Below, piece by piece: positions 13,840-51,539 of a stretch of DNA of 64,000 bases. The stretch covers positions 6,704-70,703 of the forward strand of contig JAQCBR010000003.1 of assembly GCA_027621295.1 (NCBI GenBank), given 5' to 3'. This DNA is from Planctomycetota bacterium. Lineage in GTDB: Bacteria; Planctomycetota; UBA1135; UBA2386. Within the stretch, counting starts at the first letter, position 1. Each line of letters begins with the position of its first letter. The position numbers and the translations under genes were made by a program. The notes below the pieces were generated by a model. The model saw only the letters and a list, made by a program, of their open reading frames with translations, searched no databases and was not told the origin of the DNA.

Positions 13840-14907
13840 TCAGCGGAACGCGACGATGTGTCGCATCCCGTTGCTGACCGCGAGCACACCGTTGCTCGCA
13901 CCCGGGTCCAGCACGATCCACTGGGAGTAGAACGACGCGCCGACGTAGGAACTCTGCCCCGGCAGCGGGAACGGCAGACGCGCGATCCCCGTACCCGGCC
14001 CTCCACCGACCGTCGGAACCGTGGCGGTCGCGACGAGATCGACGAGGAGCGAGCAGCCCACGCCGCCGAACGGTGCGAGGTCGAACGGCAGCGGCGTCCC
14101 GTTCCACCGCGTGTCGCTCGCGCCGATCAGGAACACACCGGTGCGCTGGACGGCGGCACCCGTCAGCAGCATCTGGTAGCCGCTGTTGCCAGGGATCGGC
14201 AGGCCGCCGTCGACGGTGTGGGCCGGAACGCGACCGCCTTCGCCGATGCAGCCGCTGCCGAACGGCCATGCGAGCGCCTCGTCGAACAGGAAGCGGATCG
14301 CCAGCCCGGTGTTGGCCGACGTCGTGGCCGCAGTGCGCGCGATCGGGTTGTTGATCGTGAACAGCCGCGTCGTCCGCCCGAGCGTGAACGGCGCGTATTC
14401 GAGGTCGTACAGGTAAGGCTGGTTGCCGTTGCCGTTGTCGAACACCTTGATGTCGACGACGACGCCCGACGACCCGTCCCAGACGAACTCGTCGCGGAAC
14501 TGCAGCCGGATCGGGAACGGATTGCTCGCCGGCGCCTGGAGCGTGATCAGCTGACGCGGCAGCACCGTCGTGCGGCCGCTGACGAAGTTGTTGTCGAACG
14601 TGCCGGAGTAGGTCGACGGCCGGGCGTTCGCCATCGTCACCTCGACGTCCACGACTCGGCCGCCGACGCCGGTCCGACCTGGACCCGCGAAGAACCACAT
14701 CCCGGTCACCCGGATCGGCTTCGCGGATTGGAGCTGCCACTCGAGCGCGGAGAACCACTGCTGGTAGCGCATCGACGGCCCGGCGAACGGGTAGCTGTTG
14801 TTCTGCGGATTGTTCCGCAGCGACGGCAGGTCGATCGTTCCCTGCGCGCTCAGCCCGCCCGCGAGCGCGAGCAGGAACAGCAGCGCTCCGCGCACCGACG
14901 CGCTCAT
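13840..14907 (-). CDS. Secreted protein with conserved two-Cys C-terminal domain
   Basis: Signal peptide ...AGGLSA|Q, beta-rich N-domain (MRYQQWF), C-domain FGSGC...LPFDL...GC...Q..VLDP...SNG. Confidence 0.75.
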   Translation of the reverse strand: MSASVRGALLFLLALAGGLSAQGTIDLPSLRNNPQNNSYPFAGPSMRYQQWFSALEWQLQSAKPIRVTGMWFFAGPGRTGVGGRVVDVEVTMANARPSTYSGTFDNNFVSGRTTVLPRQLITLQAPASNPFPIRLQFRDEFVWDGSSGVVVDIKVFDNGNGNQPYLYDLEYAPFTLGRTTRLFTINNPIARTAATTSANTGLAIRFLFDEALAWPFGSGCIGEGGRVPAHTVDGGLPIPGNSGYQMLLTGAAVQRTGVFLIGASDTRWNGTPLPFDLAPFGGVGCSLLVDLVATATVPTVGGGPGTGIARLPFPLPGQSSYVGASFYSQWIVLDPGASNGVLAVSNGMRHIVAFR

Positions 14908-16433
14908 CGGTAGAAGAACTCGCTCGAGTTGTCGACGCCCGCGGGGGTGTCTCCACCCAGGATGTGCAGCTGGCCGGCGGTCGTCTCGTAGTAACCCGCC
15001 GCGGCGCGCGGACGTGTCAGCGCCGGCCCGGTCGTGAACCTGCCGGTCGCGACGTCGTAGACCTCGACGGTCTGCAGCGGGGTGATCGCGAACAGCGTCC
15101 CGTCACCCCCGCCGATCTGCATGAACCGCCCGTTGCCGAGCGGATAGGCGATGTGCAGCGTGCGCGCCTGGGCCATCGAGCCGGTGGCCGTGAACGAGTT
15201 GGACGCCTCGTCGTAGATCTCTGCGGCGCTCGTCGGCGTGCCCCACTGCGTCAGCGAGATGGTCCCGACTCCGCCAGCGAGGAGCCAGCGGCCCGGGCTG
15301 ACCTCGATGGCCGTGCCCTGGGCGCGCGCCTGGCGAAGGCTCGGGCCCGAGGCCATCTGGTTCGTAGCCGGGTTGTAGATGTCCGTCGTCGACTCGACCG
15401 TGGGCAGTCGAATGATGAACGTGTACCAGCTGACGCCGCCGGCCAGGACCAGCCGGCCGTCCGCGCGGGAGAAGGACGAGTGGCCCGCCCTCGGCTTGGA
15501 CATCTGCGGGCCCGACGACCACGAGTTCGTCGCCGGATCGTAGATCTCCACCGAGCGCGTGATCGAGAACACGGGGTCGATCGGCGTGTTCGGCGAGTTC
15601 AGGTCGGTGATGCCGCCCGACACCAGCACTCGACCGTCCGGCAGACGCGTCGCCGCGTGTCCCATCCGCCCGGTCACCATGCTCGCCACCGGGGTGAAGG
15701 TCATCGCCACCGGATCCCAGATCTCGGCGGTCGCCTGTGGGTCGTTGGTCCGGTTGACGCCGCCCGCTAGCAGCCAGCGGCCGTCGAGGAGTTCGGTGGC
15801 CGTGTGCAGCGACCGCTCGATCGTCAGATCGGGACCCGGCTGGAACGCGTCGGTCAGCGGGTCGTACCACTCGGTGTCCTTCCGCGCCGCCTGCGCGAAG
15901 ATCGCGCCGGCCCCGCCCCCCGCGAGCAGGAAGCGTCCGTCCGCAGACGGCAGGATCGGGAAGAACGAACGCGCGTTCAGGAAGCCGACGAGCCGGTCGT
16001 AGAAGATCCCGCCGGGACCGAACCACACTGCGCGCGGCGCCGACACCTCGTCGACGAGGCGGGTCTGCGCCGGCAGCGACAGCCCCTGGAAGACCAGCCG
16101 CTGGTCGATCAACGACGGGTTGTTCGGGATCGGCAGGCTCGGCGGCGTGAACGTGCCGTTCGCGAAGAACGGTCCGATCTGCGCGATGTCGAGAAGCTCG
16201 AGGCCGACGCGGAGCGTGCGCGGGTCGGTCGGGTCGAGGAGCGCGAGCGGCGTCGGCCCCGTCGTCACCGAGATCATGATCGCTGCCCACTGCTGGAACG
16301 GCAGGCCGCCGCTCAGGGACATGTCGATCTGGCCCGGGAGCGTGCCCCCGCGCACCTCGAGGTCGAGGCCCTGGGCGGGAGAAGCGGTGGACAGAGCGAG
16401 GCAGAGGAGAGCGGCGGGCGCGATCCGGATCAT
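14904..16433 (-). CDS. Secreted kelch/galactose-oxidase-type beta-propeller protein
   Basis: Start ATG 16433, signal peptide ...STASPA|Q. About 7 kelch repeats (R..HTATEL.DGR.L.AGG...AEI.DP). ATGA overlap with the downstream gene. Confidence 0.88.
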   Translation of the reverse strand: MIRIAPAALLCLALSTASPAQGLDLEVRGGTLPGQIDMSLSGGLPFQQWAAIMISVTTGPTPLALLDPTDPRTLRVGLELLDIAQIGPFFANGTFTPPSLPIPNNPSLIDQRLVFQGLSLPAQTRLVDEVSAPRAVWFGPGGIFYDRLVGFLNARSFFPILPSADGRFLLAGGGAGAIFAQAARKDTEWYDPLTDAFQPGPDLTIERSLHTATELLDGRWLLAGGVNRTNDPQATAEIWDPVAMTFTPVASMVTGRMGHAATRLPDGRVLVSGGITDLNSPNTPIDPVFSITRSVEIYDPATNSWSSGPQMSKPRAGHSSFSRADGRLVLAGGVSWYTFIIRLPTVESTTDIYNPATNQMASGPSLRQARAQGTAIEVSPGRWLLAGGVGTISLTQWGTPTSAAEIYDEASNSFTATGSMAQARTLHIAYPLGNGRFMQIGGGDGTLFAITPLQTVEVYDVATGRFTTGPALTRPRAAAGYYETTAGQLHILGGDTPAGVDNSSEFFYR

Positions 16434-16587
16434 GGCGCGATTCGTCGACAGGGACGGCGATGCGCGCCGAACGGACGAATCCAGATCGGCGCACGGAGAG
16501 CCGTGACATGCTAGCGAATCGGCCCGCACCTGGGTGACCGGAGGGTCACCCGGGCGCTGCGGGCCGCAGCCCCGTCCCGGACAGGGT

Positions 16588-16631
16588 CGGCCCAGAAGGG
16601 GGCGGCCCAGAAGGGGGCGGCCCAGAAGGGG
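16588..16631. repeat. Intergenic tandem repeat, 3 x 15 bp (CGGCCCAGAAGGGGG)
   Basis: Two exact copies at 16588 and 16603, third copy 14/15 at 16618. Confidence 0.92.
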
Positions 16632-16690
16632 TCGGGATCAGGTCGACGGGGCGCCAGCCGGCAGATCACCGCGCGGCGCCGCGCACCCGA

Positions 16691-17017
16691 TCAGACCGGG
16701 CCGGCAGCGGTCCGGCCGAGGCGGCACGCCCGGCGGAGCCACATCATCGCGCGCTCGACCTCGCGCGGTCCCGTCACCGGGATCTCGACGAACTCCCGCG
16801 AGTGCGGGTCGCCGTCGTCCGGCTGGCGCTTCGCGCCCTGGATCTTGAGGGCCTCGATCACCTGCGGCGGGGCGAGGCGGACAACGACACCCTTCTTGCC
16901 GAGGTAGGCGAACACCTGCCCCCGGACGAAGAAGCTGTCCTTGCCGTTTTCGGTCTTCCGGGTGACGTCTTTCCAGGCGCAGAGGCGCTCGACGATGGTT
17001 GCGAGTGGGCCGGACAT
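16691..17017 (-). CDS. Small TfoX-N/MmcQ-YjbR-like protein
   Basis: Start ATG 17017. SFFVRGQVFAYL...VVVRL...EFVEIP...WLRRA pattern. Confidence 0.6.
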   Translation of the reverse strand: MSGPLATIVERLCAWKDVTRKTENGKDSFFVRGQVFAYLGKKGVVVRLAPPQVIEALKIQGAKRQPDDGDPHSREFVEIPVTGPREVERAMMWLRRACRLGRTAAGPV

Positions 17018-17127
17018 TGGGGCGCAGACTATAGCACGACCGCCCGCCTGCCCGAAAGCCCCGGCCCTCGGGCCCGCTGCGGTCGGGCGCAAACGGACGG
17101 GTTGGATGGCCCCGCCGCGCCCGTGCT

Positions 17128-18063
17128 TCAGCCCCGGAACAGCCAGTTCCGGGCGACCAGGAAGACCATCGACGGATACTCGTCGAGGCGACGACGCAGG
17201 TAGGCGATCGCCATCGGCCAGCCCAGCGCGAACGGCACGTACAGCCGGCAGCGCACGCCGCGCCCGCGCAGCTCACCGAGCAGCCGATCGCGCGGAACCC
17301 CATACAGCATCTGGACTTCGAAGCGGTCTGGTCCGACCCCGGTGGCCGGCACGACCTCGTCCACGAAGCGACGGACGAACGGCTCGTCGTGGGTCGCGAA
17401 CTCCACGTAGTGCCCCCGCTCGAGCAGGGTCCGGGCGAAGCGGAGCATCCGCTCCTTCATCTCCCGCTTGTCGGTGATCGCGACCGATTCCGGTTCGGCG
17501 TAGATCCCGATGACGAGGCGGACCCGGATTCCGGGCGGCAGTCGGTCCAGGTCGGCCTCGGTGCGGTCCAGCCGGGTCTGCAGCACGCAGCCGACGTCGG
17601 TCAGCCCCTCCCGGTGGAGCTGGCCCAGCAGGTCGAACGTGAAGTCCGTCCAGTGCCGGCTCTCCATGTCGAGCGTGCACCGGAGGCCCTTCCGGCGGGC
17701 GTGGGCGGCGATCGTCCGGATCGCGTCGGCAGCGCCGCGGGCATCGCCTCCACGCTCGAGGGGGCGGGTGGTGTAGCTCGACAGCTTCATCGACACCGTA
17801 GGCCGATCGAGGGCGTCCGCCGCCGCGAACCCGGGCTCGCCCACGGTCCGGTCGATGAGCTCGAGGTAGGTGTCCGTGTTTCGTTGGACCGTATCCTCGT
17901 CCTCGATGTCCTCCGCGAGGAGGTCGAGGCTGCTGCCGAGGCCGCGCTCGGACCAGAGCTGCGAAGCGGTCCGGATCGCCTGCTCCACGGAGTCCCCCGC
18001 GACGTAGGGACGCGCGAAGACGCGGACCAGGAACGGGGGAATCAGGCGGATGAGGGGGTTCAC
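17128..18063 (-). CDS. Monofunctional proline dehydrogenase
   Basis: YVAG, LDLLAE, SMKLS, TLDME, RLVIGIY.EP, FATHD, FEVQMLYGV and YVPF...YLRRRLDE. GTG 18063 start. Confidence 0.9.
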   Translation of the reverse strand: MNPLIRLIPPFLVRVFARPYVAGDSVEQAIRTASQLWSERGLGSSLDLLAEDIEDEDTVQRNTDTYLELIDRTVGEPGFAAADALDRPTVSMKLSSYTTRPLERGGDARGAADAIRTIAAHARRKGLRCTLDMESRHWTDFTFDLLGQLHREGLTDVGCVLQTRLDRTEADLDRLPPGIRVRLVIGIYAEPESVAITDKREMKERMLRFARTLLERGHYVEFATHDEPFVRRFVDEVVPATGVGPDRFEVQMLYGVPRDRLLGELRGRGVRCRLYVPFALGWPMAIAYLRRRLDEYPSMVFLVARNWLFRG

Positions 18064-18204
18064 GGTCGGGGCGGGATCATGCCGGGCGGTCGGCTCGTGC
18101 GCCAACACGGACGCGGCGGGACCGTCGAGGCCACGGCGCGTCCTTTCGCTGGTGCAGCTTCGGTGGAGCCGCGGGCGCTGGAGTCCGCCGGGACCGGGTC
18201 CGAC

Positions 18205-18233
18205 TCAAGTCCTGCACGCCGAATCGCCGATGG
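18205..18233 (+). promoter_or_regulatory. Possible sigma-28-type promoter
   Basis: TCAAG (18205-18209), 16 nt, GCCGATGG (18226-18233), 25 nt upstream of ATG 18259. Confidence 0.35.
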
Positions 18234-18258
18234 CACCGGGGTCTCCGCGGATACCCCG

Positions 18259-19524
18259 ATGCGCGTCGTCTTCGTCCTCGACCCCACCACCGGCCCGGCC
18301 GGCGATCCGAGCTCCGTCCTGGCGCTCGCGTCCCGGCTGCCGGCCCGCGGGTTCCACGTCGACCTGTTCTGGTTCGGCGACCCCGAACCGGCGGGACCGG
18401 CACCCATCCCGCACCGGGGCACGAGCCCGGCGAGCCTGCCCGCAGCGGACATTCTCGTCGCGACCTCGGCCGACACCGTCGAGTTCGCGGTCGCCGCGCG
18501 CCGCGCTCCGGTGGTCCGACTGGTGACCGAAGCCGCGCCCGAAGCGGGCCGCCCGGTGCCGACGATCGTCGCCGGCGACATCGCGCGAATCGCAGGTCGC
18601 CCCCACGGCGAGCTGCACCCGATGGGACTCTGCGTCGACCCGACGACCTTCCAGCCGAAGACCGGTCCGAGACGACCCGGTCCGACCCGCATCGGCACGT
18701 TCGGCGTCGACGCCTCGACCGGCGCCGCGCTCAGGGCGACGCTGGCCGACTTCGACCTGAAGCCCGAACTCGTCCGCATCGAGGACTCGTGCCTCGTGCG
18801 CGCCGACGTTTCCCGGGCCACGCTCCTCCAGGACCTCGACCTCCTGGTCCTCGCGGGTGACGGTGACGACCGCTTCGCGGTCGAGGCGATGGCCTGCGGC
18901 GTGCCCTGCGTCCTCGGCGACACGCGGCGCGTCCGCGGCTGGCTCGGCGAACGCACGGGCGCAGCGCTCCTCGTCGACACCGCCGACGTGCGCAGCGTCG
19001 CCGAGGGGGTGGTCTTCCTCATCCGGCACCGAAGACTGCGCGACGACGTCCAGGACGCCGCGCGTCGGATCGCCGCGGGCCACGGCTGCGACCCGAGCGC
19101 CGACGACCTCGCGCAGGCGCTGACGCGGGCCGCGGAACGCGCCTGTGCAGTCTCGGTCCGCAAGACCCCCGCGCCGACCACCGAGCCCGAACGCCCGGCC
19201 ACGATCCCTGCCTCCCCGCTGGCATGGACCCAGGTCGCCGCCGAGCGCCTCGAGCGTGGGGACGCGGACGGCGCGCTCCGCGCGACCGACCGCGCGCTGG
19301 CTGCCGGCGGCACGTCGTGTCGCCTCTTCGAGGTCCGTGCCCACGCGCTCGAAGCGCTGTCCCGCGACGACGACGCGCTCCTCGCGCTCGATCTGGCGAG
19401 CGACCACCGCGACGCGTCGCCGCAGACCTTCCGCGAACTGGCGCGCCATCTGCGCCGTTGCGGCGAGGTCGCCCGCGCGCGCATCGCCGAGGACGAAGCC
19501 GCGGTGCGCGCGGCCTGCGGCTGA
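18259..19524 (+). CDS. GT-B (family 4-like) glycosyltransferase with C-terminal TPR-like region
   Basis: ADILVATS, CVDPTTF and AVEAMACGVPCV, followed by helical repeats. Start ATG 18259. Confidence 0.7.
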   Translation: MRVVFVLDPTTGPAGDPSSVLALASRLPARGFHVDLFWFGDPEPAGPAPIPHRGTSPASLPAADILVATSADTVEFAVAARRAPVVRLVTEAAPEAGRPVPTIVAGDIARIAGRPHGELHPMGLCVDPTTFQPKTGPRRPGPTRIGTFGVDASTGAALRATLADFDLKPELVRIEDSCLVRADVSRATLLQDLDLLVLAGDGDDRFAVEAMACGVPCVLGDTRRVRGWLGERTGAALLVDTADVRSVAEGVVFLIRHRRLRDDVQDAARRIAAGHGCDPSADDLAQALTRAAERACAVSVRKTPAPTTEPERPATIPASPLAWTQVAAERLERGDADGALRATDRALAAGGTSCRLFEVRAHALEALSRDDDALLALDLASDHRDASPQTFRELARHLRRCGEVARARIAEDEAAVRAACG

Positions 19525-19566
19525 GACCGACCGTCACGGCGTGTGACGAGATCGAGTCACACGCCG

Positions 19567-20544
19567 TCAGCCGGCGTCGATCGCGATCCGGAACGCGATC
19601 AGCCCGAGGTAGCCGAGCACCAGCACCGCACCCTCGGGGCGGGACATCCGACCGCCCTTGCCGAGGAACGGCACGAGCGCGAGGCTGACGACGACGAGCG
19701 CCGGCGTGTCGTAGCGGAGCAGATCGACGCTGACGGACTGCGGCACCGTGGTGCAGCTCACGCCGAGGATGCCGAGCGCGTTGAAGATGTTCGAGCCCAG
19801 CACGTTGCCGACCGCGACGTCCGACTGACCGCGGCGGGCGGCGACCAGCGAGGTGACGAGCTCCGGGGCCGAGGTGCCGAACGCGACGACGGTCAGGCCG
19901 ATGATCACGTCCGACAAGCCCAGGCGCCGCGCGATCTCGCTCGCCGACCCGACGAGGAGGTCGGCTCCGTAGACGAGCACCGCGAGGCCGCCAGCGATCA
20001 GCAGGAGTGCGACCGGCATCGACAGGCGCCGCTCGGCGGCCGGCACCGGCGGCGCGTCGAGCAGCGCCTTCATCGCGCGCTCCTCCGCGGCCTCCGCCTT
20101 GCCGACGCGGTAGCCGCGCCAGAGGAACAGACCCATCAGGCACAGGAGCAGCGCCCCGTGCAGGCGGCCGAGCCGCAGGTCCGGGCTCGTCAACGCCAGG
20201 AACGGCACGAACGCGCAGGCGATCGCGATCCGCACCTCGGTCCGGATCACCGCGTAGCGCACCGGGATCGGCTGGAGCCACGCGGTCAGACCGAGGATCA
20301 GCGCGATGTTCATCAGGTTCGAGCCGACGACGTTGCCGAGCCCGATGCCCTCACGACCCTGGAGCGCCGCGCCGAGCGTCGCCGCGAGCTCCGGCGTCGA
20401 AGTGCCGAACCCGACGATCGTCAGCCCGATGAAGAACGACGACAGCCCGAGTCGGCGCGCGATCGCGACCGAACCCCGCACGAGCGCCTCGGCGCCGACG
20501 GCGAGCAGCAGCAGTGACCCGATCAGCAGCAGCGCGGACAGCAT
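19567..20544 (-). CDS. Calcium/sodium (CaCA) antiporter, YrbG-like
   Basis: Two alpha repeats: GLTIVGFGTSTPEL...GNVVGSN and GLTVVAFGTSAPEL...GNVLGSN. Confidence 0.93.
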   Translation of the reverse strand: MLSALLLIGSLLLLAVGAEALVRGSVAIARRLGLSSFFIGLTIVGFGTSTPELAATLGAALQGREGIGLGNVVGSNLMNIALILGLTAWLQPIPVRYAVIRTEVRIAIACAFVPFLALTSPDLRLGRLHGALLLCLMGLFLWRGYRVGKAEAAEERAMKALLDAPPVPAAERRLSMPVALLLIAGGLAVLVYGADLLVGSASEIARRLGLSDVIIGLTVVAFGTSAPELVTSLVAARRGQSDVAVGNVLGSNIFNALGILGVSCTTVPQSVSVDLLRYDTPALVVVSLALVPFLGKGGRMSRPEGAVLVLGYLGLIAFRIAIDAG

Positions 20545-20567
20545 GGGCGGCGCTCGACGTAGGGAGG

Positions 20568-21686
20568 TCAGCCGGCGCTGACCGAGAACTCTCCGGAATC
20601 GTCGAGCTCGGGTCGACCGACCTCGGCGGCCAGGACCTCGAGCCCGGCACACGCACCGTCGACGTCCGCCGCGTCCCACAGCAGGGCGGCGATGCGCTCG
20701 TGGACCTCAGGGCGCGGGTCGCGCAGCACCTGCTCGGCCGGCGAGAGTTCGCCTTCGTCGACGACCCGCGTCTGCATCAGCGGGTAGGCGCGCGCCTTCT
20801 CGACGAAAGTCTCCTCCGGCATCGGTCGGTAGCGGCAGAAGAACGAGAAGTGCCACGGCAGGAAGAACATCGCCCGCTTGCGGCCCTTCTCGTCGTCACG
20901 GAAGTGCTCCTTCGCGTAGCGGACGAGGCGCAGGTAGACCTCGACCCGCTCCGCGGTGGTCGGCAGCCAGGTCCGGCCGCTCGCGCACTCCTCGAAGAGC
21001 CACGGCTTGACCAGCACACCACGGGCGAGCATCACCGCAGCACAGCCCGACTGCGCGATCCGATCCTCGGCCTCGTGCCAAGTGAGCACGTCGCCGTTCC
21101 CGACCACCGGGATGGATCGCTCCTGGACGAGCTGCCCGACGAGATCCCAGTCCGCTGCGCGGGTGTAGCGCTGCTCGCGGGTGCGGCCGTGCAGAGTGAT
21201 CATCGACGCGCCGGCCTCCTCGACGAGCCGGGCGACCTCGGGCGCGTTGATCTCGCCCTCCTTCCAGCCCGCGCGGATCTTGACCGTCACCGGCACGTCG
21301 AGCGCCTCGACCATCGCCTCGACGATGCGCGCGAGCGCGGCCGGACGCTGGAGTAGCGTCGATCCCATGCCGCGGCGGATCACGTCGTGGATCGGGCAGC
21401 CGGCGTTGATGTCGATGAAGTCCGCGCCGCGCTCGACCGCGGTCTGCGCCGCCTGGACGCCGTCCTTCGGGTTGCCGACCGCGAGCTGGACGCCGAAGCA
21501 GGGCTCGGACTCGTGACGCCGGAGCAGCGCCATCTCGGACGGGCGACGCCGGACGACCTGCTTCGCGTAGGCCATCTCGGACATCGTGACCTTGGCCCCG
21601 AAGTCGACGCAGAGCCGGCGGAACGGCAGGTTCCCGCCCTTGGTCAGCGGGGCGAGCAGGAAGCGAGGCGGGGTCCAGCGGGACAT
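20568..21686 (-). CDS. tRNA-dihydrouridine synthase, eukaryotic Dus3-like
   Basis: LAPLTKGGNLPFRRLC, FGVQL, DINAGCP, HGRTREQRYTRAADW, GNGD, ARGVLVKPWLFEE and SFFCRY. Confidence 0.9.
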   Translation of the reverse strand: MSRWTPPRFLLAPLTKGGNLPFRRLCVDFGAKVTMSEMAYAKQVVRRRPSEMALLRRHESEPCFGVQLAVGNPKDGVQAAQTAVERGADFIDINAGCPIHDVIRRGMGSTLLQRPAALARIVEAMVEALDVPVTVKIRAGWKEGEINAPEVARLVEEAGASMITLHGRTREQRYTRAADWDLVGQLVQERSIPVVGNGDVLTWHEAEDRIAQSGCAAVMLARGVLVKPWLFEECASGRTWLPTTAERVEVYLRLVRYAKEHFRDDEKGRKRAMFFLPWHFSFFCRYRPMPEETFVEKARAYPLMQTRVVDEGELSPAEQVLRDPRPEVHERIAALLWDAADVDGACAGLEVLAAEVGRPELDDSGEFSVSAG

Positions 21687-21746
21687 GGGGGCGAAGAGCG
21701 TAGCGAGGGCCGGCCGCGAAACACGGGACTGGTCCGGCTCAGGCCG

Positions 21747-22927: not shown

Positions 22928-22985
22928 TGCAGATTCCTTGTCCACGCTTTTGCCGATTCTGATCTGCGGGCCTACCCTGCGCACC

Positions 22986-41612: not shown

Positions 41613-42227
41613 CTACCCGCCGCCCTTCTTCCCGCTGCCCGCCTCGACCTCCGCCGGCGGCACGATCGGAGCGCGGCGCTCCCCGGTCTCGCCAGCGGCC
41701 GCACGTGCTTCCATCTCCCGGTCGATCTCCGGCTTGCGCCAGATCTTGCCGTCCTTGTCGATGCCCATCCCGAGCGTGAACAGCTCGCCGTCGTGCAGGA
41801 GCACGTTGGACGCGCCGTCGACCCCGACCGAGAGGTGGATGCGCGGAAGCTGCTGCTCGTCGTGGAGCAACACGTGCGGGAACTGGTCCACCGCGAGGCC
41901 AAGCCGATTCTTCAGCTTCTGGTCCTTGAAGAGCAGGTAGGCGGTCTGCGGGTCCGCGGCCAGGATCATGCGATCCCCGCCGTCCGGGTCTCGCATCACG
42001 AGTTGGGGGTGCCCCTCACCCACCAGCTCGAACACGCCCCGCTCGACGCCCTTCGCGTCGGTCAGCACGAAGCGCTCGGCGCGCACCTCGGCGAAGTGCT
42101 CGAACACACGTGCCGCACCGAGGAGCGGCACCGACAGCAAGAGTGCGGTCAGCCAGCCCGTCCGGCGACGGAGTCTGCGGTTCTCGGCCTCGAGGTTCGC
42201 GAGACGGCGTTCGAACGAATAGGTCAT
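41613..42227 (-). CDS. Hypothetical membrane-anchored protein with repeated beta-hairpins
   Basis: ERRL..LE.ENRRLRR followed by a TM segment, then VRAERFVLTD..G..R and repeated L...D....R..L units. Confidence 0.65.
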   Translation of the reverse strand: MTYSFERRLANLEAENRRLRRRTGWLTALLLSVPLLGAARVFEHFAEVRAERFVLTDAKGVERGVFELVGEGHPQLVMRDPDGGDRMILAADPQTAYLLFKDQKLKNRLGLAVDQFPHVLLHDEQQLPRIHLSVGVDGASNVLLHDGELFTLGMGIDKDGKIWRKPEIDREMEARAAAGETGERRAPIVPPAEVEAGSGKKGGG

Positions 42228-42271
42228 GGCTCTCGGAGTCAGCAATGGAGGTGGGAACCCAGACATGAGAG

Positions 42272-42329: not shown

Positions 42330-44891
42330 TCACCGGTTGCCGCCGACGCGCGTCTCCCGCGCGTTCGACAGAGTCAGCGCCGCAGGACGCCCGTTGCCGG
42401 GGTCGACCACGAGGTAGCTCGTGTAGTGCGGGACGCCGATCGTCGCCACGTCGACCGGCCACGTGTAGGTCACGGTTGCCGTTCCCAGCGCGCTGGTCGC
42501 GACGCCGACGGACGTCACGAGGTTGTGGTAGAGGAAGCAACCCGGGTTGTTGATGATCGACAGGTCGAGCGGCAGCGGCAGCCCGCCCAGCGTCGAGTTC
42601 GACAGCCCGAAGTTGTAGGCCGCAGGCGTAGAGGACCGCGCGAGGGAGAGCTGGTAGCGCACCGGCGAGCCCTGCTGCGGGCCGTTGCCGGCCAGCCAGG
42701 ACACGCTGTGGACCGGCACGAGGCCATTGGAACCGGTGCAGCCAGCACCGATCGAGGTCGTCGTCCCCGCCACGTTGTCGTAGTAGGTCGCGACCGCGGT
42801 CTTGGTCCCGTCCATCGTCAGGCTCAGCGTCCGGCCGAACGGGAGCTGGAGGACCCCGTTGACCCGCCAGTAGCGGAAGTCGTTGAAGCCGACGCTCGCG
42901 GGCGCCGTCAGGGTGACGACCTCGCCGTCCAGGTAGGTCCGCGAGAACGTCGTCGACCCGTTGCCGAGGCCGTTGATGTCCCCCGGCGTCGCGGTGATCG
43001 AGACACCCGTGGACGGGTTCGTCGACTGGACCGTCAGCGAACGACGCGCGCGGTAGTCGGCGATCGCAGTGTCGTCGAGAGACCCGATGGTGCTGACCGA
43101 CAGGATGCGGTCTCCGAGCGTGCCGTTGACGAAGCCGCCGGTCGGCGAGACGCGGTAGCGCCACCGCTCGAACTCGTAGGTGACGAGCCCCACCGTGTGC
43201 GTTGCAGGTGCGGTCAGCGTGTACGGCTGACTCGGCGTGAAACGACGCGTCAGGTTGGTCGATCCGTCCTTCCGGCCGTCCATGTCGGTCTGCTCGATCG
43301 TGATCGACACGCCGGTGACCGGACTGCTCTCGACGGCTAGCGTGACCCAACCCGGCTCGTAGTCATCCCGACCGAACCAGAACGCCCGCGGCGTGTTGCT
43401 CGCGCCCGTGGTGCCGTTGCGCTGGCTCATGCCGGTCGCAACGAAGGTGTCGGTGTAGCGGGAGTGCTGCTGGACCGTGAAGTAGTCCCCCCAGCGCGCC
43501 TGATTGGGGCTGGTCGTCCCGGCAGCCCCGGTGAAGTAGGTCCCCGGCCAGCCGTTGTAGTTGTCGACGAGACCAGCAGCCGTCTGCAGCTGGATCGTCG
43601 GCGACGAGAACGCCGCAACGATCCCGACGTGGCCCTGCGCGTTGGTCGCCGCGGCCCCGTAGGCCCAGGCGCCGGTGCTGCTCCAGATGTCGTGCTCGCT
43701 CGACACGGTCCGCGCCGGATGCGGCGCGACGCGAATCACGCGGATGTGCGGGTTGGCACGCGTGCCGACCGGGCCCGATGTGAACATCAGCCCGAATTCC
43801 GCCGAGCTGCCGAAGGCACCGCGGAAGCGCGTGTTCGCGCGCGCCGCCCAGTTCACGCTGTCCGGACTGGGGGTCGAGCTGATCCCACCCGACGTGATCG
43901 AGCCGATCGTCCGGACGTCCCGCGAGTAGGTCCCCGCGTCGGAGTAGAAGCCGACCTGGATGCTGGAAGAACTCTCGAGACAGCCCCAGTGGATGCCGTC
44001 GCCTGCACCCGCCTTGGCCATCCGCGGCGCGAAGTTCAGCCCGTGCGAGATGCTGTTGATGAAGCCGAGCGGGATCGAACCGTTGGCCTGCAGTGCCGCC
44101 AGATCGGTGCGAATGAGCGCCGTGCCGACGAAGTTCGAGCTCGCGTCGTAGACGTTCGCCGACAGGTAGAAACCGTCGTTCGAGTAGGCGATGTCCGGGA
44201 AGTCGAACCAGACGTTCGTGCCGAAGCCGAACCGGTTCTGCGGCGTGATGTAGTAGCTCGTCCAGTCCGCGGAGTTCCCGCTGCCGAGTTCGGCATCCCC
44301 GTTCGCCACCGCGATGCGGTAGCCGGCGGTGCCGGTCGTGCCGCTATAGCTGTACTGGAGCACCCAGACGGTGATGTCATGCGAGGGGATGTAGACGATC
44401 CGCTGGTCGCAGCAGAACCCACCGTCGCGCGACGGGAAGAACGTGTAGGGGCTGATGTGCTCCCACGACGCGCCGTTGTCGCGGGAGACCGCCGCATACC
44501 AGTTCCCCGTCTGGAACATCACGTGGTCGGTCTGCGCGATCGACGGCTCGCCGGTCGTCGAGCGCGACGCGCCGGCGGGAGTGACCTCCTCGTTCTGGAA
44601 GAAGCGGAACTGGCCGGTGTCGATGACCGCAGGATCAAAGACCTCGGCTTCCGGTGTGTTGGGGCCGGCCCGGAACGGCCCGACCGGTACCGGAGGGCTG
44701 TTGTGCCCCGAGAGAGCACCCATCATGACCTTCGGCGGCATCGGGGCGTCGGGCGCGTAGCCGTGGTAGACCGGCTCGGGGTCGATGAAACCCTCGAACT
44801 GCGCAGCGCCCTGCTGTTGGGCGGCCAGCGGCAGCAACGACAGGGAGAATAGAGAGAGAGCCGTGGAGCGGCTGAGAAGCGACAGAGTCAT
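42330..44891 (-). CDS. Large secreted protein: beta-rich N-domain, two InlB-B/Flg_new-like repeats, two-Cys C-terminal domain
   Basis: Signal peptide ...PLAA|Q, GGFCCDQ, RWGDYF, two ~90-aa repeats (GVSIT...D.[DN]G..[DN]GST...TLTAPA...F..W) and a GAGC...GC C-domain. Confidence 0.8.
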   Translation of the reverse strand: MTLSLLSRSTALSLFSLSLLPLAAQQQGAAQFEGFIDPEPVYHGYAPDAPMPPKVMMGALSGHNSPPVPVGPFRAGPNTPEAEVFDPAVIDTGQFRFFQNEEVTPAGASRSTTGEPSIAQTDHVMFQTGNWYAAVSRDNGASWEHISPYTFFPSRDGGFCCDQRIVYIPSHDITVWVLQYSYSGTTGTAGYRIAVANGDAELGSGNSADWTSYYITPQNRFGFGTNVWFDFPDIAYSNDGFYLSANVYDASSNFVGTALIRTDLAALQANGSIPLGFINSISHGLNFAPRMAKAGAGDGIHWGCLESSSSIQVGFYSDAGTYSRDVRTIGSITSGGISSTPSPDSVNWAARANTRFRGAFGSSAEFGLMFTSGPVGTRANPHIRVIRVAPHPARTVSSEHDIWSSTGAWAYGAAATNAQGHVGIVAAFSSPTIQLQTAAGLVDNYNGWPGTYFTGAAGTTSPNQARWGDYFTVQQHSRYTDTFVATGMSQRNGTTGASNTPRAFWFGRDDYEPGWVTLAVESSPVTGVSITIEQTDMDGRKDGSTNLTRRFTPSQPYTLTAPATHTVGLVTYEFERWRYRVSPTGGFVNGTLGDRILSVSTIGSLDDTAIADYRARRSLTVQSTNPSTGVSITATPGDINGLGNGSTTFSRTYLDGEVVTLTAPASVGFNDFRYWRVNGVLQLPFGRTLSLTMDGTKTAVATYYDNVAGTTTSIGAGCTGSNGLVPVHSVSWLAGNGPQQGSPVRYQLSLARSSTPAAYNFGLSNSTLGGLPLPLDLSIINNPGCFLYHNLVTSVGVATSALGTATVTYTWPVDVATIGVPHYTSYLVVDPGNGRPAALTLSNARETRVGGNR

Positions 44892-45058
44892 CGAATCTCC
44901 TGATCTGGTGAAAGAGCGAGCAGTCCGAGGCTATGGACGCCCATGCTTCTTCCCAGCCGGAGTCCGTCGTCGCGGGAAGAATGCCACCGACAACTTCGCC
45001 CGGCTTCCGGGGCCCGCGGCGCACGACGCGAGCCGCGCGGCGCCGCTGCGTTCGGCTC

Positions 45059-47110
45059 CTAGCCGAACGGGTGAGCGAAGTCCTCGGGCGGCAAGTCTCT
45101 GACGAGACTCGAGTTGCCATCCTCCAGGTCAGCCCCGATCCGCTCGAGCTGGACCCGCATGGCGTCGATCTCACGCAGCCCGGACAGAATGCGGATCGCG
45201 CGGAACTCGTCCTTCAGCTGCGCACAGCGCAGCGCGGCTACGGCCTGCTGCGACGCGTCCTGGGCCGCCGCGTGGTGACAGAGCACGAGCATCGATACCA
45301 GGTGTTCGATGCCCTTGCCGAAGCGCTGCAGCGGGATCTGCGCGCGCGTCAGGTCGAGCTGGAACCAGAGGTTCGTGCCGAGGTACGCCCAGCGTCGACC
45401 GCGGAGCTTGCGCTCGGCGTAGCGCGCGAAAGGCCGTAGCGCCTTCGGCAGCCCCGCGTAGCGCCCGATCCACGAGGTCGGGACGAGGCGACCGGGGAGG
45501 CGCAGCACCTCGGTGACGAGGCCTCCGGCGATCCAGCCGACGAGGCGCCAGAAGCCAGCGTTGGTCAGCAGGCGGATCGTCGCGAGGGCCACGCGGACCG
45601 GATGGCGGACTGCCGTGCTGGGCGCGATGCGGAACAGGATCTGATCCTTGGGCAGCGACTTGCCGTCCGGCCCGACGTTGATCGAACGGATCACGCCGAG
45701 CATTCCGGCCATGTAGCGGTCGGTGAAGCGCGTCGTGACGTCCTTCACCATCCCCATCAGGATCAGGTCGTCCTCACCCTCGACGACGCCGAACACGTGC
45801 ATGTTCGAACGGGACTGCGCGACGCGGGACTTCGCGTCGAAGGTCCGACCGCCGAGCACGCGCTCACACGCCGTCAGCGATCGGAGCGCCGTGGTCGCGG
45901 CGGCCGACTTGGTCAGGTCGCGGAGACCGGCGAGGTCGACGCCGTCCGCATCCTGCTGCAGCGAGAGGTGCGACAGCGCGCGCGCCTGGAGCGCGCCACC
46001 GAGCATCGTGCCGAGCGCGAGCCTCGGCAGTTCGTGCTTGATGACGAGTCCGCCGACGCCTGGACGCTGGCGTGCGTAGTGCACGGCGTCCGCCGCGAAC
46101 ATCCGCTGGTAGCCCGCCGACATCGCCGCGAGCATGCAGCGCCCCATCCGCAGGCAGTAGAACAGCACCTCGACGCCGTCCGCCTCGATGCGGTTGGCGG
46201 CCGGCACCGGGAAGTTGTCGAAGTGGATCCGGCTGTTGTGGTTCGGCTGGAACGCGTCGACATCCGACGAGCGGAGCCAGAACTCGTGGTCGCACGCATC
46301 GCTCCGCACGATGTCGGCATCTGGCAGCTCGATGACGAACAGCCCGACGTCGCGACCACCCTTGCCGATGCGGACGACGAAGCCCGCCAGGGCGCCGTAG
46401 GTCGCGTTCGTGATCCACAGCTTGTTGCGCGCGCCGTCCGCGAACAGGCGGAAGCCGCCGGTCTCCGGGTCGGGCTCGACGTAGGCCTGGACCTTCTTCG
46501 CGTTGACGCCGATGCCGACCTCGCTGAGTGCGAACGCCATCAGGCGGCCGTCCGAGATCATCGGCAGGAACAGGCTCTGCTGGGCCTGGTTGCCGTAGCC
46601 GAGCAGCGAGCCAGCGCCGATCGTCAGTTCGCCCGAGATCTCGACCGCGAGCGGCCCGAGTCCGTTCGCGGCGAGCTGCTCTTCGATGACCGCGAGTTCC
46701 GGGTAGGACGCCGCGCGCCCGCCGAACTCGGTCGGCACCGTGAACCCGTAGCCGCCCGCCGACGAGACCGCCGTGCGGAGCGCGGTGGACAGCTTGCCGT
46801 CCGCCTCGAACGCCTCACCCTTCGCCAGGCAGCCGAGCGCCGCGTCGAGGACGTCCTTGCCGGTCTCGCCCGCCTGGGCGGAGATCCGTGCCCCGGAGCC
46901 AAGTTCTTCGACCGGCGGGAGCGGCCCGTAGATCAGTCGCTCGACGAGGCTCTGCTTCGCGCGGCCGAGGCGCTGCGCGGCGCGGGTCGCGACGTCGTCC
47001 AGGGCAGCCACGTCGCGGGCCTGCTCGGCGTCACCCGCCGCAGCCAGCGCCTGGGCAGCGGTCGAGAGGGCGGGCTCGGTCTCCGGGGACTTCGTGTCTC
47101 GGCTGGTCAT
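45059..47110 (-). CDS. Acyl-CoA dehydrogenase family protein (long form)
   Basis: YGFTVPTEFGG, MAFALSE, KLWITNA, LGGR.F and VVEGEDD. Confidence 0.85.
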   Translation of the reverse strand: MTSRDTKSPETEPALSTAAQALAAAGDAEQARDVAALDDVATRAAQRLGRAKQSLVERLIYGPLPPVEELGSGARISAQAGETGKDVLDAALGCLAKGEAFEADGKLSTALRTAVSSAGGYGFTVPTEFGGRAASYPELAVIEEQLAANGLGPLAVEISGELTIGAGSLLGYGNQAQQSLFLPMISDGRLMAFALSEVGIGVNAKKVQAYVEPDPETGGFRLFADGARNKLWITNATYGALAGFVVRIGKGGRDVGLFVIELPDADIVRSDACDHEFWLRSSDVDAFQPNHNSRIHFDNFPVPAANRIEADGVEVLFYCLRMGRCMLAAMSAGYQRMFAADAVHYARQRPGVGGLVIKHELPRLALGTMLGGALQARALSHLSLQQDADGVDLAGLRDLTKSAAATTALRSLTACERVLGGRTFDAKSRVAQSRSNMHVFGVVEGEDDLILMGMVKDVTTRFTDRYMAGMLGVIRSINVGPDGKSLPKDQILFRIAPSTAVRHPVRVALATIRLLTNAGFWRLVGWIAGGLVTEVLRLPGRLVPTSWIGRYAGLPKALRPFARYAERKLRGRRWAYLGTNLWFQLDLTRAQIPLQRFGKGIEHLVSMLVLCHHAAAQDASQQAVAALRCAQLKDEFRAIRILSGLREIDAMRVQLERIGADLEDGNSSLVRDLPPEDFAHPFG

Positions 47111-47234
47111 GAGGTCGGTCAGGGGGACGCGGGGTCCGGAGATCGCCGGACACCCTGGTCAGGGCGGGCTTTCGAAGGCCGACCGCCCGGAGACGCACCT
47201 CGAACTGGCGCGGGGCGGGAACGCCTCGGTCCGG

Positions 47235-47465
47235 TCAATCGAGCGCCTCGGCGTCCGCGGTGTCCTCCGGATCCTCGTCCCCGCCCCGGAGCCGCGCGAC
47301 CTTGGCGCGGACCTTCTTGTTCTGCTTCCGGAGACGGTCGTTGCTCTGCTGGAGGCGCTGCAGCTCATCGCAGAGAGCGCGCACCTCGCCGCGACCGAGG
47401 GTGAGCTCGGCCTCTTCGCCGGGGTTCGTCTGGAGCCAGGAACGGAGCTTCGTCGCGTCGATCAT
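47235..47465 (-). CDS. Small coiled-coil hypothetical protein
   Basis: 76 aa with a heptad pattern (LCDELQRLQQSNDRLRKQNKKVR), typical codon usage, and TAGCAT upstream. Confidence 0.6.
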   Translation of the reverse strand: MIDATKLRSWLQTNPGEEAELTLGRGEVRALCDELQRLQQSNDRLRKQNKKVRAKVARLRGGDEDPEDTADAEALD

Positions 47466-47479
47466 CAGGGGCGAAGATG

Positions 47480-48496
47480 CTACCGCCCGCCGGTGTCCGA
47501 ACCTTCGGCGGAACCAGGCACTTGCCAGGTGAAGTCCCAGGAACGGAGCTCCTCGACCCCCTGCGGGTCGCCGCCTTCCGGCGACGGGCGCTCCATGCGG
47601 AATCTCGCCTCGACGTGGAGCGGGAGCAGGCGCGCGGGATCGAGGATCGCGATCCGCTCGACCTCACCACGGACACCCATCAGCGTCGCGCGGACGTTCT
47701 CAGGGACGTCGGCCGGCAGCTCCTCGGCCACCGGCTCGACCATCCCCCGGATCTCCAGCCGGACGTGGTCGGCGGGATCGGCGATGTAGCCACGCATCTT
47801 CACCGGCAGCTCGAGCTCCGAGCCGAGCGGCGCCCAGGGCAACGTCGTGAACACGGGTCGGGTCACGGTCTCGCCGGGAGCGGCGCGCAGCCCCGCCCAG
47901 ATGCCGACCCACACCGCGTAGCGATCGCCGGCGGCCCGGATCAGACCCTCGCGCTGCTCGGGCGAGCGCATCATCGCCGCGCGCGCCCGGAGCGCCGACT
48001 CGATGTCCGCTCGCTCCGCGAGGTCTTCACCGGCCGATTCGATCTGCGCCTCGACCGCCAGGGCCGACCGCTCGATCCAGGCGTCGGCGTCCTCGACTCC
48101 GACGAAGCTCCCGTCTGCGCCCACGAGGATCGCCGGCATCGCGGACTCGAGGGAGCCGAGCATGCCCGCGAAGCGCTGGCCGACGGCCTCCCGGTCGGCG
48201 CGCTCGCCACCGACCTCGACGAGGTCGAGATCACTGGTGCGGATCACGAGCCCGCCTTCCGCCACACCTTCGACCGTCAGCAGGTAGCGCACGGAGAATC
48301 CGAGGCCGGCACCCCGGATCCGCTCGACGACCTCGGCCCGCGCGCCGGCCGGCCAAGCGAATCCAAGCTCGATCGGCCCCGCCGGCTGCTCGGCCTCGGG
48401 TCGCACCGTCGCGTCGACCACGCGGCCCGCGTCGGCACCCCCACAGCTGTAGAGAAGGGTGACGATCGCGAGAGCAGCGGCGTGTCTAGGGAGCAT
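47480..48496 (-). CDS. Hypothetical lipoprotein
   Basis: Lipobox LLYSC followed by GG. IELGFAWP motif. Confidence 0.65.
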   Translation of the reverse strand: MLPRHAAALAIVTLLYSCGGADAGRVVDATVRPEAEQPAGPIELGFAWPAGARAEVVERIRGAGLGFSVRYLLTVEGVAEGGLVIRTSDLDLVEVGGERADREAVGQRFAGMLGSLESAMPAILVGADGSFVGVEDADAWIERSALAVEAQIESAGEDLAERADIESALRARAAMMRSPEQREGLIRAAGDRYAVWVGIWAGLRAAPGETVTRPVFTTLPWAPLGSELELPVKMRGYIADPADHVRLEIRGMVEPVAEELPADVPENVRATLMGVRGEVERIAILDPARLLPLHVEARFRMERPSPEGGDPQGVEELRSWDFTWQVPGSAEGSDTGGR

Positions 48497-48561
48497 CCCC
48501 GCCGATCATGCCCGCGCCGGACCGGGTGGTCCAACGCGGACGCGACGTCGGCGAACCTGCT

Positions 48562-50256
48562 TCAGCGCACCTGCAGGAACACCGGCCCACGCTCGGACTC
48601 GAAGTCCCAGTTCGCGTTCCGTGCCCTGACCTGCACGCGGATGCGCGCCCACTCACCCTCGATCGGGAAGTGGCATTCGATCCCGCCGTCGGGCCCCTGC
48701 CGATGCGCGAAGCCCGCACCGCCGTCGCCGAAGTGCGCGCGGTTCTGGAACGCGACCCTGGCCTGCAGGCCCGTGTCCCAGTCGACGAGGATCTCGTAGG
48801 TGTCGGTCGGCTCGACCAGGAACTGGGTCAGGTCCTCGTCCAGCAACAGGTAGACGTCGGTCGCATCGACCGAGGTGAAGACACCGCCCATGTCCGGACG
48901 GCTCTCCCACAGACGATCGCGCGTCTGCAGCATGATCCGGTCACGATCACGATCCCAGTCACCGAGATCGCCGTCGATCGTCTTCGTCGCCATGGTCACG
49001 GCAGCGTTGTCGAGCAAGAGCGCGTAGCCCGGATCTTCCTGGAGGATACCTGGTTCGGGTGCCGTGCCGCCGATGGAGACGAGAGCCCCGCCGAAGGACG
49101 CCATCTCCGCGGTCAGTCCGGCCAGCGACGTGACGCCGAGCAGGCGCCTCGCCGTCAACGGATCGGCGATCGACTTGATGTAGAGCGCCCGTAGATCGAC
49201 GCCGGCGAACAGGCGGCGGAAGTCGAGGACGGTGTGCAGCTCCTGCGGCAGGACGGTCCCGTCGGGCAGCGTCGTGATCGTGAACGTGCCGTCCAGCGCC
49301 CCGACCATCGCACGGAGCCAGTTCCGCAGCTGCTCTTCCTGCTGCAGCATCAGCTGCCGCATCGTGGGGTCGGCGATCCACTGCTCGAGGCGCGCCATCG
49401 ACATCACCCCTTCACGCTGCTGCTCCTGATTCTCGGCGCGGACCTGCTCCATGCAGCTCTCGTAGCAGAGGAAGCAGTCCTGCAGGCGATCGCGCAGGCG
49501 CGTCAGGTTCTGCGTGCGGAGCAGCGTGCCGAAACCCGGGTGCTCGATGTCGACCACCGCGATCGGGTCGATCGTCGGGTCGTCGACGAAGTCGAGCTCG
49601 TTCGGCGACAGCGCGTCGTAGTCGTAGACCGTCAGCCCCTCGATCAGTGCGCGCAGCGCCTCGACGACCGCGAGTGCTGCCATCGCATCCGCGTGGTCGA
49701 GACGGATCGCGTGGTCACCGCCGGGCGACAACCAGGCGAGGAACCGTCCACCACGGTCCGCCGGGATCACGTATTCCCAGTCCTCGGGGACCTCACCCAG
49801 CGCGGTCGACACGGCGTCCAGCACCGGGAGCACGTCGTCGATCAGGAGCGTGGCGAGCTCGTCGAGCGTCGGGAAGTCGTCCTTGAACAGCCCTTCGCCG
49901 TGCTCCTCGAGGGCCAGGAGCAGATCCCAGAACGTCGCGCCATCGATGAACTGGATGCCTGCTCGCTCCAGCGTGAGGCGGAAGCGATGTTGGGCCTGGG
50001 TCCTCGTCTGGATCTCGTCGAGCGCAACGACGCTGGCCAGGACGACCTGCGCGTCGACGTTCGACGGATCGAGCCGTGTCGCGGCGAAGAGGTCGTCGCG
50101 CATCGCCTCGAAGTCATCGCTGCCGTCGAACAGCGCGGTCACGGTGTCGAGTGTCAGCCTCGCGGCTTCGTTGGTGTTCTTGCCGGTCGACTTGTCGTGG
50201 CAAGCGGTTGCAGCGAGAAGCAGTGCCAAGGCTGCAGACGGGGCTCTGTGCATCAT
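48562..50256 (-). CDS. Hypothetical acidic lipoprotein
   Basis: SD GGAGG, start ATG 50256, lipobox AATAC, helical body, C-terminal TIDGDLGDW motif. Confidence 0.7.
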   Translation of the reverse strand: MMHRAPSAALALLLAATACHDKSTGKNTNEAARLTLDTVTALFDGSDDFEAMRDDLFAATRLDPSNVDAQVVLASVVALDEIQTRTQAQHRFRLTLERAGIQFIDGATFWDLLLALEEHGEGLFKDDFPTLDELATLLIDDVLPVLDAVSTALGEVPEDWEYVIPADRGGRFLAWLSPGGDHAIRLDHADAMAALAVVEALRALIEGLTVYDYDALSPNELDFVDDPTIDPIAVVDIEHPGFGTLLRTQNLTRLRDRLQDCFLCYESCMEQVRAENQEQQREGVMSMARLEQWIADPTMRQLMLQQEEQLRNWLRAMVGALDGTFTITTLPDGTVLPQELHTVLDFRRLFAGVDLRALYIKSIADPLTARRLLGVTSLAGLTAEMASFGGALVSIGGTAPEPGILQEDPGYALLLDNAAVTMATKTIDGDLGDWDRDRDRIMLQTRDRLWESRPDMGGVFTSVDATDVYLLLDEDLTQFLVEPTDTYEILVDWDTGLQARVAFQNRAHFGDGGAGFAHRQGPDGGIECHFPIEGEWARIRVQVRARNANWDFESERGPVFLQVR

Positions 50257-50354
50257 CTTCGGTGTTCCTCCGGTTCGGCCCAATGCGGGCGCCCGGTCGA
50301 ACGCCTCGTGCCCCGTGCCGTTGCGTCCCGAATCGCACGACGAATCAGCCCCAT

Positions 50355-50370
50355 GGGCACCTCGTTTGCG
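50355..50370 (+). promoter_or_regulatory. Putative sigma-54 (-24/-12) promoter
   Basis: GGGCAC-CTCGT-TTGCG matches TGGCAC-N5-TTGC, about 110 nt upstream of ATG 50481. Confidence 0.6.
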
Positions 50371-50480
50371 CGTGAGACCAGGGCGTGCATCCCCCCCTTG
50401 CCGTCGGACGAAGGTCGCGGGACGCTGTCTCCCCCCCGGCCTGCCCCGAGTCAGACCCTGGCCGCGAGCCCACGCTCGTC

Positions 50481-51539
50481 ATGACCATGCGCATCCAGAA
50501 GATCCTCACGACGCTGGGCTTCGCCCTCATCGCAAGCGGCGGAGCCACGTCGCAGACGACGGTCACGCTCGAGCCGGTCGCCGACACGACGCTGTACCAG
50601 TTCGATCCGTTCGCCAGCAACGGCGCCGGGACCCGCCTGTTCTGCGGCAACGACCTCGCGGCGTCGTCCAAGCGCGGGCTGCTGCAGTTCGACGTCCACG
50701 CATCGATCCCGCCCGGCTCCGTGATCCGCTCGGCCCAGCTGGGCATGAGCGTGGTCCAGACCAGGGCTCCGGCGCTCCCGGTCGACCTGCACCGCGTCCT
50801 CTCGCCCTGGGGTGAGGGGACTTCGTTCGCATCGAGCGGACAGGGCGGCGGCGCACCGGCGACCCCGGGAGATGCCACCTGGTTCGACGCGAACTTCGGG
50901 GTCCAGCAGTGGGCGCAGATGGGCGGCGACTACGCGCTCTCGTCGAGCGCCTCGACGGTCTGCGGCTCGACCGGCCGCTTCACGTGGTCGTCGACCGGCC
51001 TCGTCAACGACGTCCAGGCCTGGGTCAACGGCACCGCCGCGGACTTCGGCTGGATCGTCATCTCGGGTGAGTCCGGAACGATGACGGCGCGCGCGTTCGC
51101 GACGCGCGAAGCGGCGGCCGGCCAGCGTCCGACGCTGACCGTCACCTACGACCCGCCGACCGCGGCCATCGTCGGCTACGGCACCGGCTGCGCGGGCGGG
51201 GGAATCCTGCCGATGACGATCACCGCGTCGTCGCAGCCGACCGTCCCCAACGCGCAGTTCTCGCTCCGCCGCACCGGCGGCCCTCGTATCGCGACCTTCG
51301 TGCTGAACCTGTTCGGGGACATCCTGTCCTCGCCGCTCCCGCTGACGCCTGGCTGCGACCTCTGGGGGAACCCGGGGACGCTGCTCGCATCGGTGACGAT
51401 GCCGGCCGTCCTCCCGCTGCCGATCCCGAACGACCCGGGCATCCTGGGCGCAACGCTCGGCCTCCAGGCCTTCGCGATCGACCCGGCGACGCAGACCTTC
51501 GCGTCGTCGAGCGCGCTCCAGCTCCGCTTCGGGCTGTGA
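50481..51539 (+). CDS. Secreted DNRLRE/CBM96-like domain protein with two-Cys C-terminal domain
   Basis: Signal peptide ...GATS|Q. ADTTLY, RGLLQFD, WGEG, VQAWV...FGW, F.TRE and PTLTVTY, then GYGTGC...PGC...Q..DP...S.AL. Confidence 0.82.
   Translation: MTMRIQKILTTLGFALIASGGATSQTTVTLEPVADTTLYQFDPFASNGAGTRLFCGNDLAASSKRGLLQFDVHASIPPGSVIRSAQLGMSVVQTRAPALPVDLHRVLSPWGEGTSFASSGQGGGAPATPGDATWFDANFGVQQWAQMGGDYALSSSASTVCGSTGRFTWSSTGLVNDVQAWVNGTAADFGWIVISGESGTMTARAFATREAAAGQRPTLTVTYDPPTAAIVGYGTGCAGGGILPMTITASSQPTVPNAQFSLRRTGGPRIATFVLNLFGDILSSPLPLTPGCDLWGNPGTLLASVTMPAVLPLPIPNDPGILGATLGLQAFAIDPATQTFASSSALQLRFGL

Follow-up and report, generated by a model that had tools for sequence, protein, structure and literature searches.

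A recurrent C-terminal domain of exported proteins in part of the Planctomycetota, a candidate anchoring or docking module

We analysed a 64,000-nucleotide stretch of a Planctomycetota bacterium genome (GenBank assembly GCA_027621295.1, contig JAQCBR010000003.1, positions 6,704 to 70,703), hereafter the window. It encodes three exported proteins, A, B and C, that end in a similar module of about 150 residues, which we refer to as the C-terminal domain (CTD), and a Kelch beta-propeller protein, D, that carries a relative of this module at its N-terminus (Table 1). All four are open frames with high GC content at third codon positions, as in real genes of this 70% GC genome. The part preceding the CTD, which we call the cargo, has no match in Pfam or NCBIfam in protein A, whereas protein B has a single weak Pfam match (Flg_new_2, E 0.029) and protein C matches NF033679 DNRLRE (E 1.3e-15) and, under the cut-off, CBM96 (E 6.9e-5). 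The shared tails of A, B and C match no model of either collection; the only named parts are the Kelch repeats of D and the DNRLRE/CBM96-like domain of C. An original prediction, made from the letters of the window alone, had described a two-cysteine module at the ends of A, B and C and had proposed it as a targeting module; the profile envelopes, at 13846-14346, 42333-42845 and 51099-51536, agree with the placement that it gave.

Pairwise similarity between the three tails is low. BLASTP aligned A with B at E 1e-7 (30% identity over 155 residues) and A with C at E 0.004, and the B/C pair was not significant. A hidden Markov model (HMM) was then built from the three tails alone and used to search the genome (4.6 Mb, 89.7% complete), translated as 38,925 six-frame open reading frames (ORFs). 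At a domain E <= 1e-4 it matched 60 ORFs, the three seeds and 57 others, and four more rounds led to convergence at 123 copies in 123 ORFs, one in each. A leave-window-out HMM, built only from family members off the window's contig and scored with Z = 38,925, returned A at E 1.7e-27, B at E 1.1e-23 and C at E 2.2e-18. Weak as the BLASTP pairs are, these profile scores settle the matter, and by this measure the C-terminal modules of A, B and C are homologous. With the same HMM, about 100 profile positions aligned to the N-terminus of D (E 2.5e-5, 25.3 bits), which agrees with the expectation of a Cys-free relative in the Kelch protein. With hhalign, however, only a 31-column IPN..P...Q stretch was backed, at a probability of 46%, and we therefore regard D as a divergent relative and not as a typical family member. 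The stop codon of D and the start codon of A overlap in an ATGA at window positions 14904-14907, which indicates that the two genes are probably co-translated, pairing an N-terminal variant of the domain with the C-terminal form.

Table 1. Positions of the proteins, domains and signal peptides in the window
Feature	Position	Strand	Description	Basis
Protein A	13840..14907	-	355 aa: signal peptide, ~205-aa cargo part, CTD	open reading frame, family HMM
CTD of protein A	13843..14346	-	ORF aa 253-419 of 420; ends 1 residue before stop	HMM envelope
Signal peptide of protein A	14845..14907	-	putative cleavage before Gln, placed by eye	read from translation
Kelch beta-propeller protein D	14904..16433	-		Kelch families, E down to 2.3e-24
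N-terminal CTD relative in D	16062..16370	-	both family Cys absent; directly after signal peptide	leave-window-out HMM
Protein B	42330..44891	-	853 aa: signal peptide, ~700-aa cargo part without confident family, CTD	open reading frame
CTD of protein B	42333..42845	-	ORF aa 696-866 of 866; ends at stop codon	HMM envelope
Protein C	50481..51539	+	signal peptide, DNRLRE/CBM96-like domain, CTD	open frame from 50385; putative start at 50481 placed from the signal peptide
CTD of protein C	51099..51536	+	ORF aa 242-387 of 387; ends at stop codon	HMM envelope
Signal peptides followed by Gln (A, B, C, D)	14845-14907, 44820-44891, 50481-50552, 16374-16433			read from translations

The family has a strong terminal bias, as had been expected of it. 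The domain ends 0-1 residue before the stop codon in 110 of the 123 genome copies; another six have an extension of 15-28 residues, and seven are N-terminal or internal, some of them scoring 72-93 bits. Conservation is highest at one Gln (92%), two Pro (89% each) and several Gly. The tails stop 0-4 residues past the last beta-strand glycine and carry no hydrophobic stretch. Alignment columns flanking the domain are unconserved, and no Pro/Thr/Gly-rich or compositionally distinct linker was seen upstream of it, nor any conserved linker or cleavage motif. The two-cysteine pattern holds for part of the family: among 125 aligned rows both Cys are present in 57, neither in 40 and one in 28. The two positions co-occur (odds ratio 15.5, Fisher p 1.3e-10, for rows that are paralogues and not independent), and from this co-occurrence we infer a Cys-Cys bridge in about half of the copies. 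At G000:C252:4202-4789 a domain copy is split into two ORFs by an in-frame TAG, either a pseudogene or an assembly error.

Signal peptides were scored with a heuristic of our own that, in its strict form, calls for a signal peptide followed by a small residue and Gln. This strict test was passed by 70 of the 104 C-terminal carriers outside the window. Among the 34 that failed, 11 lack an N-terminus at a contig end, 16 have such a peptide by eye and one is lipoprotein-like, and the association with signal peptides that had been anticipated is seen in nearly all carriers. The Gln at +1 noted for the window proteins is visible in the translations of A, B, C and D. Across the genome, 55 of 59 family members have the Gln motif just behind the hydrophobic core, compared with 258 of 707 other signal-like N-termini, a set that includes membrane proteins. 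Exported proteins of this genome in general tend to bear Gln right after the signal peptide. The Gln-at-+1 rule is called Bacteroidetes-specific in the abstract of the paper that describes it, and Planctomycetes go unmentioned in its text. A profile search of this genome with Glu_cyclase_2 gave no match.

The cargo is diverse. Our scan took in every cargo part that had passed the signal-peptide test, 73 in all (three in the window and 70 outside it), and left out failed or truncated carriers. It gave 46 Pfam families, which confirms that the module is carried by unrelated proteins. FG-GAP (8 cases) and Kelch (7) lead, followed by Laminin_G_3 (4), CCP_MauG (3) and Peptidase_S8 (3). GSDH, PKD, reprolysin-like and beta-helix families occur twice each, and sulfatase, GHL10, M28, endonuclease I and LTD once each; NCBIfam adds choice-of-anchor B, DNRLRE and ELWxxDGT.

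The fold was modelled with AlphaFold2 on residues 206-355 of protein A, using an alignment of 43 copies. The resulting model (pLDDT 94.1, pTM 0.88) has eight strands and no long helix, in line with the beta-sandwich that had been proposed; a full-length model of protein A made from a 5-sequence alignment reached a pLDDT of 36.2. Foldseek returned nothing from the PDB at E <= 0.001, with a best TM of about 0.4. An exhaustive structural aligner placed immunoglobulin (Ig)-like receptor domains and macroglobulin domains at the top (Z 8.8-7.5). The CTD of PorU (6za2_B, residues 1054-1158) appeared at rank 44 with Z 6.5 and an rmsd of 3.5 over 97 aligned residues, a score within the noise band given 508 chains at Z >= 5. 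We conclude that the domain is predicted to be a common Ig-like beta-sandwich of about 150 residues without a specific PDB relative. Searched by sequence, the profile found a single chance-level match in the PDB (1fux, E 0.1), and at E <= 0.01 none of the 43 copies had a match in Pfam-A or NCBIfam. The family is therefore absent from these two domain catalogues; the original prediction had likewise assigned no named family to it. No description of the domain was found in the matched passages of the literature searched.

The domain is widespread within a limited part of one phylum. Against a library of 1.84 billion proteins, the profile matched 27,937 cluster representatives (clustered at 50% identity) at E <= 0.001, 14,416 at E <= 1e-10 and 538 at E <= 1e-30. 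In the top 150 representatives the domain was always present as a single copy; it was N-terminal in four and, in the other 146, stopped no more than 5 aa from the C-terminus. The source names of the matches, where given, read hypothetical protein, serine hydrolase or arylsulfatase A; those from NCBI name Planctomycetota or Planctomycetes as the organism, and those from JGI/IMG state none. In the ESM Atlas the neighbours of the domain are Planctomycetota clusters without Pfam families. The HtpG encoded in the window is likewise closest to proteins of Planctomycetota metagenome-assembled genomes. The tail of protein B as query returned only itself and one 88% relative, and the alignment as query gave, at longer lengths, 34 matches, all unnamed or from Planctomycetota and with no Pfam family on the tail. 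Turning to genomes, we found the domain in 20 of 21 genomes of relatives, where the matches per genome numbered from 11 to at least 150; one genome of the same order (2.9 Mb, 91% complete) gave no domain match. A sample of the class had it in 81/81 genomes, at high copy in some families and at only 1-12 copies in most of two others, and in the low-copy genomes it is again found at the end of a secreted protein. In a sample of the phylum it was present in 31 of 151 genomes and was all-or-none within the families listed, and it was found in none of five genomes from other phyla. Judged from the library names and these genome samples, the family is restricted to part of the Planctomycetota, in agreement with the lineage specificity that had been suggested.

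A comparison across one type of cargo provided information regarding the role of the tail. NCBI "choice-of-anchor" names designate cargo that is found with alternative C-terminal anchors. Choice-of-anchor B (TIGR04312) occurs in 30 of the 151 phylum-sample genomes, 21 of which also have the domain. Eleven of the 30 loci end in this domain (eight at E <= 1e-9 and three at 1e-5 to 1e-6), and all 11 come from genomes with the family. Seven loci, all in genomes without a domain match, have dockerin-type tails instead. Three of these tails were scanned: one matched the GC-type dockerin NF041540 (E 1.9e-13), one matched PF00404 (E 1.2e-8), and that of locus L210 scored E 0.0029 (18.2 bits, under Pfam's 22.9-bit cut-off); the four others are near-identical by eye to two of the scanned ones. 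In two further loci the tail is a TIG domain, and the others are without assignment. To judge from these tail sequences, the domain fills the slot that is held by dockerin-type tails on the choice-of-anchor B cargo of other Planctomycetota. Two loci, L220:136-645 and L224:178-687, have tails with Cys and a YWYRD-like motif that match neither Pfam nor NCBIfam and resemble the domain only marginally (E 6.5e-4 and 0.022 among 30 tails); this may be another uncatalogued tail.

The GC-type dockerin resembles the domain not only in holding the same C-terminal slot, as does Dockerin_1 (PF00404), but also in its expansion within its own lineage. Three genomes of one family (G060, G086 and G164), of 3.3 Mb each, have 200-222 NF041540 candidates apiece. 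Neither the genome studied here nor its family gave a match to this model, and in the phylum sample the GC-type expansion and this domain share no family, with a single GC-type match in one domain-bearing genome (G087). The two kinds of tail differ in kind: there is no sequence relation, none of the 43 domain copies matches the dockerin profiles (PF00404 and NF041540), and the dockerin models, 67 and 57 positions long, describe a calcium-loop repeat family as opposed to a 150-residue beta-sandwich. We know of no cohesin-like partner in this phylum for either the dockerin tails or this domain.

Known sorting systems were searched for by profile. SprA (two models), PorV, GldM and Peptidase_C25, taken as the core of a type IX secretion system (T9SS), gave no match in this 89.7% complete genome, but the control genomes were silent in four of five of these searches and absence is not shown. 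The same applies to sortase, Slam/SlipAM and Glu_cyclase_2, which had no match in this genome while most controls were silent. The T9SS CTD model TIGR04183 matched nothing in the whole genome, and T9SS CTD, PEP-CTERM and LPXTG profiles each matched none of the 43 copies. The PEP-CTERM/exosortase and LPXTG/sortase systems likewise use C-terminal tags on diverse exported proteins, but the tails described here end in a beta-strand, without the hydrophobic helix or basic tail of those tags, and there is no sortase family match. An exosortase of the EpsH family is encoded at G000:C82:60411-61175 (E 5.9e-42), but the domain tails lack the helix on which such enzymes act. Within 6 kb of carrier genes lie 972 of 5,566 ORFs, and neighbourhood clustering of these yielded generic large families only. 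Sulfatase paralogues are found there in 10 of 27 cases, against the baseline of 972 in 5,566 ORFs, which hints that carriers sit in polysaccharide-use regions.

These observations support the interpretation of the tail as a targeting module, a function that we infer. The reading that we favour, tentatively and with slightly less than even confidence, is that exported proteins carry the domain as an interchangeable C-terminal module, specific to the lineage, for anchoring or docking. The precursor would cross the inner membrane by Sec, as its signal peptide suggests, and signal peptidase I would expose the N-terminal Gln by a presumed cleavage at the motif that is seen. The last ~150 residues would then fold into the predicted Ig-like beta-sandwich, with a putative Cys-Cys brace in about half of the copies, and this common tail may be recognised by one shared cell-envelope partner, which would retain or display the unrelated cargo. 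Dockerin-type tails on the same cargo in other Planctomycetota would, on this reading, be similar in role. The N-terminal and internal copies (7 of 123 in the genome, four of 150 in the library) are easier to reconcile with a docking module than with a signal for which the C-terminus must be free. Several points weigh against such a module. No partner, scaffold or receptor was found among the genes near carriers or in the machinery searches, and the recurrent neighbours (sulfatase, PSCyt/DUF1553-like and DUF1501-like) are generic Planctomycetota families. A translocation signal, too, would fit the near-absolute placement at the last residues. The cargo includes di-haem MauG-like enzymes and PQQ dehydrogenases, classically periplasmic proteins, and the destination may therefore lie inside the envelope and not at the surface. 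Slot equivalence means that tails are interchangeable and is not proof that they do the same job, and the localisation of the carriers is itself presumed from sequence.

A serious, though less likely, alternative is that the tail acts as a genuine signal for secretion or sorting at the outer membrane, as does the T9SS CTD of Bacteroidota (TIGR04183/Por_Secre_tail, types A and B). The folded tail would then be recognised by a dedicated, hypothetical translocon or sortase, which would export the cargo and cleave it or attach it covalently. Carriers do share the genomic signature of T9SS cargo, with Gln at +1 after a Sec signal peptide and a single Ig-like sandwich at the extreme C-terminus of many unrelated cargos, tens to hundreds per genome. 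The PorU CTD is also among the structural neighbours, but its Z of 6.5 lies in a band that is noise when the best Z is 8.8. The T9SS CTD is about 80 aa long with seven strands according to the abstract of PMC11285876; the domain described here is about 150 aa with eight predicted strands, belongs to a different phylum, matches none of the T9SS CTD models and has N-terminal and internal copies and no conserved linker or cleavage motif, and the T9SS core was not found, in searches whose controls were mostly silent. Another serious alternative, which we consider unlikely, is that the domain is a ligand- or substrate-binding module of the carbohydrate-binding or adhesion type, by which enzymes and adhesins would be directed to a substrate outside and not to the cell. 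Its beta-sandwich fold is common to many carbohydrate-binding modules (CBMs) and adhesin domains, hydrolases and adhesin-like repeat proteins are numerous among the carriers, the domain can occupy either end of a protein, and the sulfatase paralogues near carriers would fit. Placement at the very last residue in 89-97% of cases is, however, unusual for CBMs, as is limitation to a single copy; the redox enzymes, nucleases and peptidases among the cargo share no common substrate, and no copy matches a Pfam CBM family. A general role in folding, stability or self-association, without any part in targeting, would explain why a compact and often disulfide-capable fold is found on so many unrelated exported proteins, but it would leave unexplained both the strict terminal position and the fact that dockerin-type tails take the place of the domain on the same cargo, and we regard it as very improbable.

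About 120 proteins of this genome share a tail without a name in the catalogues, and to give it one would at once annotate the exported proteome of a class with almost no cultured members. The tail would also offer a handle on how enzymes and adhesins are placed in bacteria with unusual envelopes; it could serve as pull-down bait, as a surface-proteomics marker and as a query for phylogenetic profiling. With the GC-type dockerin expanded in parallel in another family, C-terminal tags that are lineage-specific and mass-produced may be a general trait of the phylum that has gone unstudied. A bolder proposal, which we put forward with considerable doubt, is that the domain marks an undescribed sorting and surface-display system of the whole class, with machinery of its own and a Gln-at-+1 rule like that of the Bacteroidota, that would have arisen independently as an analogue of the T9SS.

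The window also contains four sizeable ORFs with coding-like GC content at third codon positions and no Pfam match at E <= 0.001, at 41613-42266, 47480-48496, 48562-50283 and 58850-60127. The one at 41613-42266 shares its strand with the protein B gene and lies directly downstream of it, with an M14 carboxypeptidase gene on its other side.

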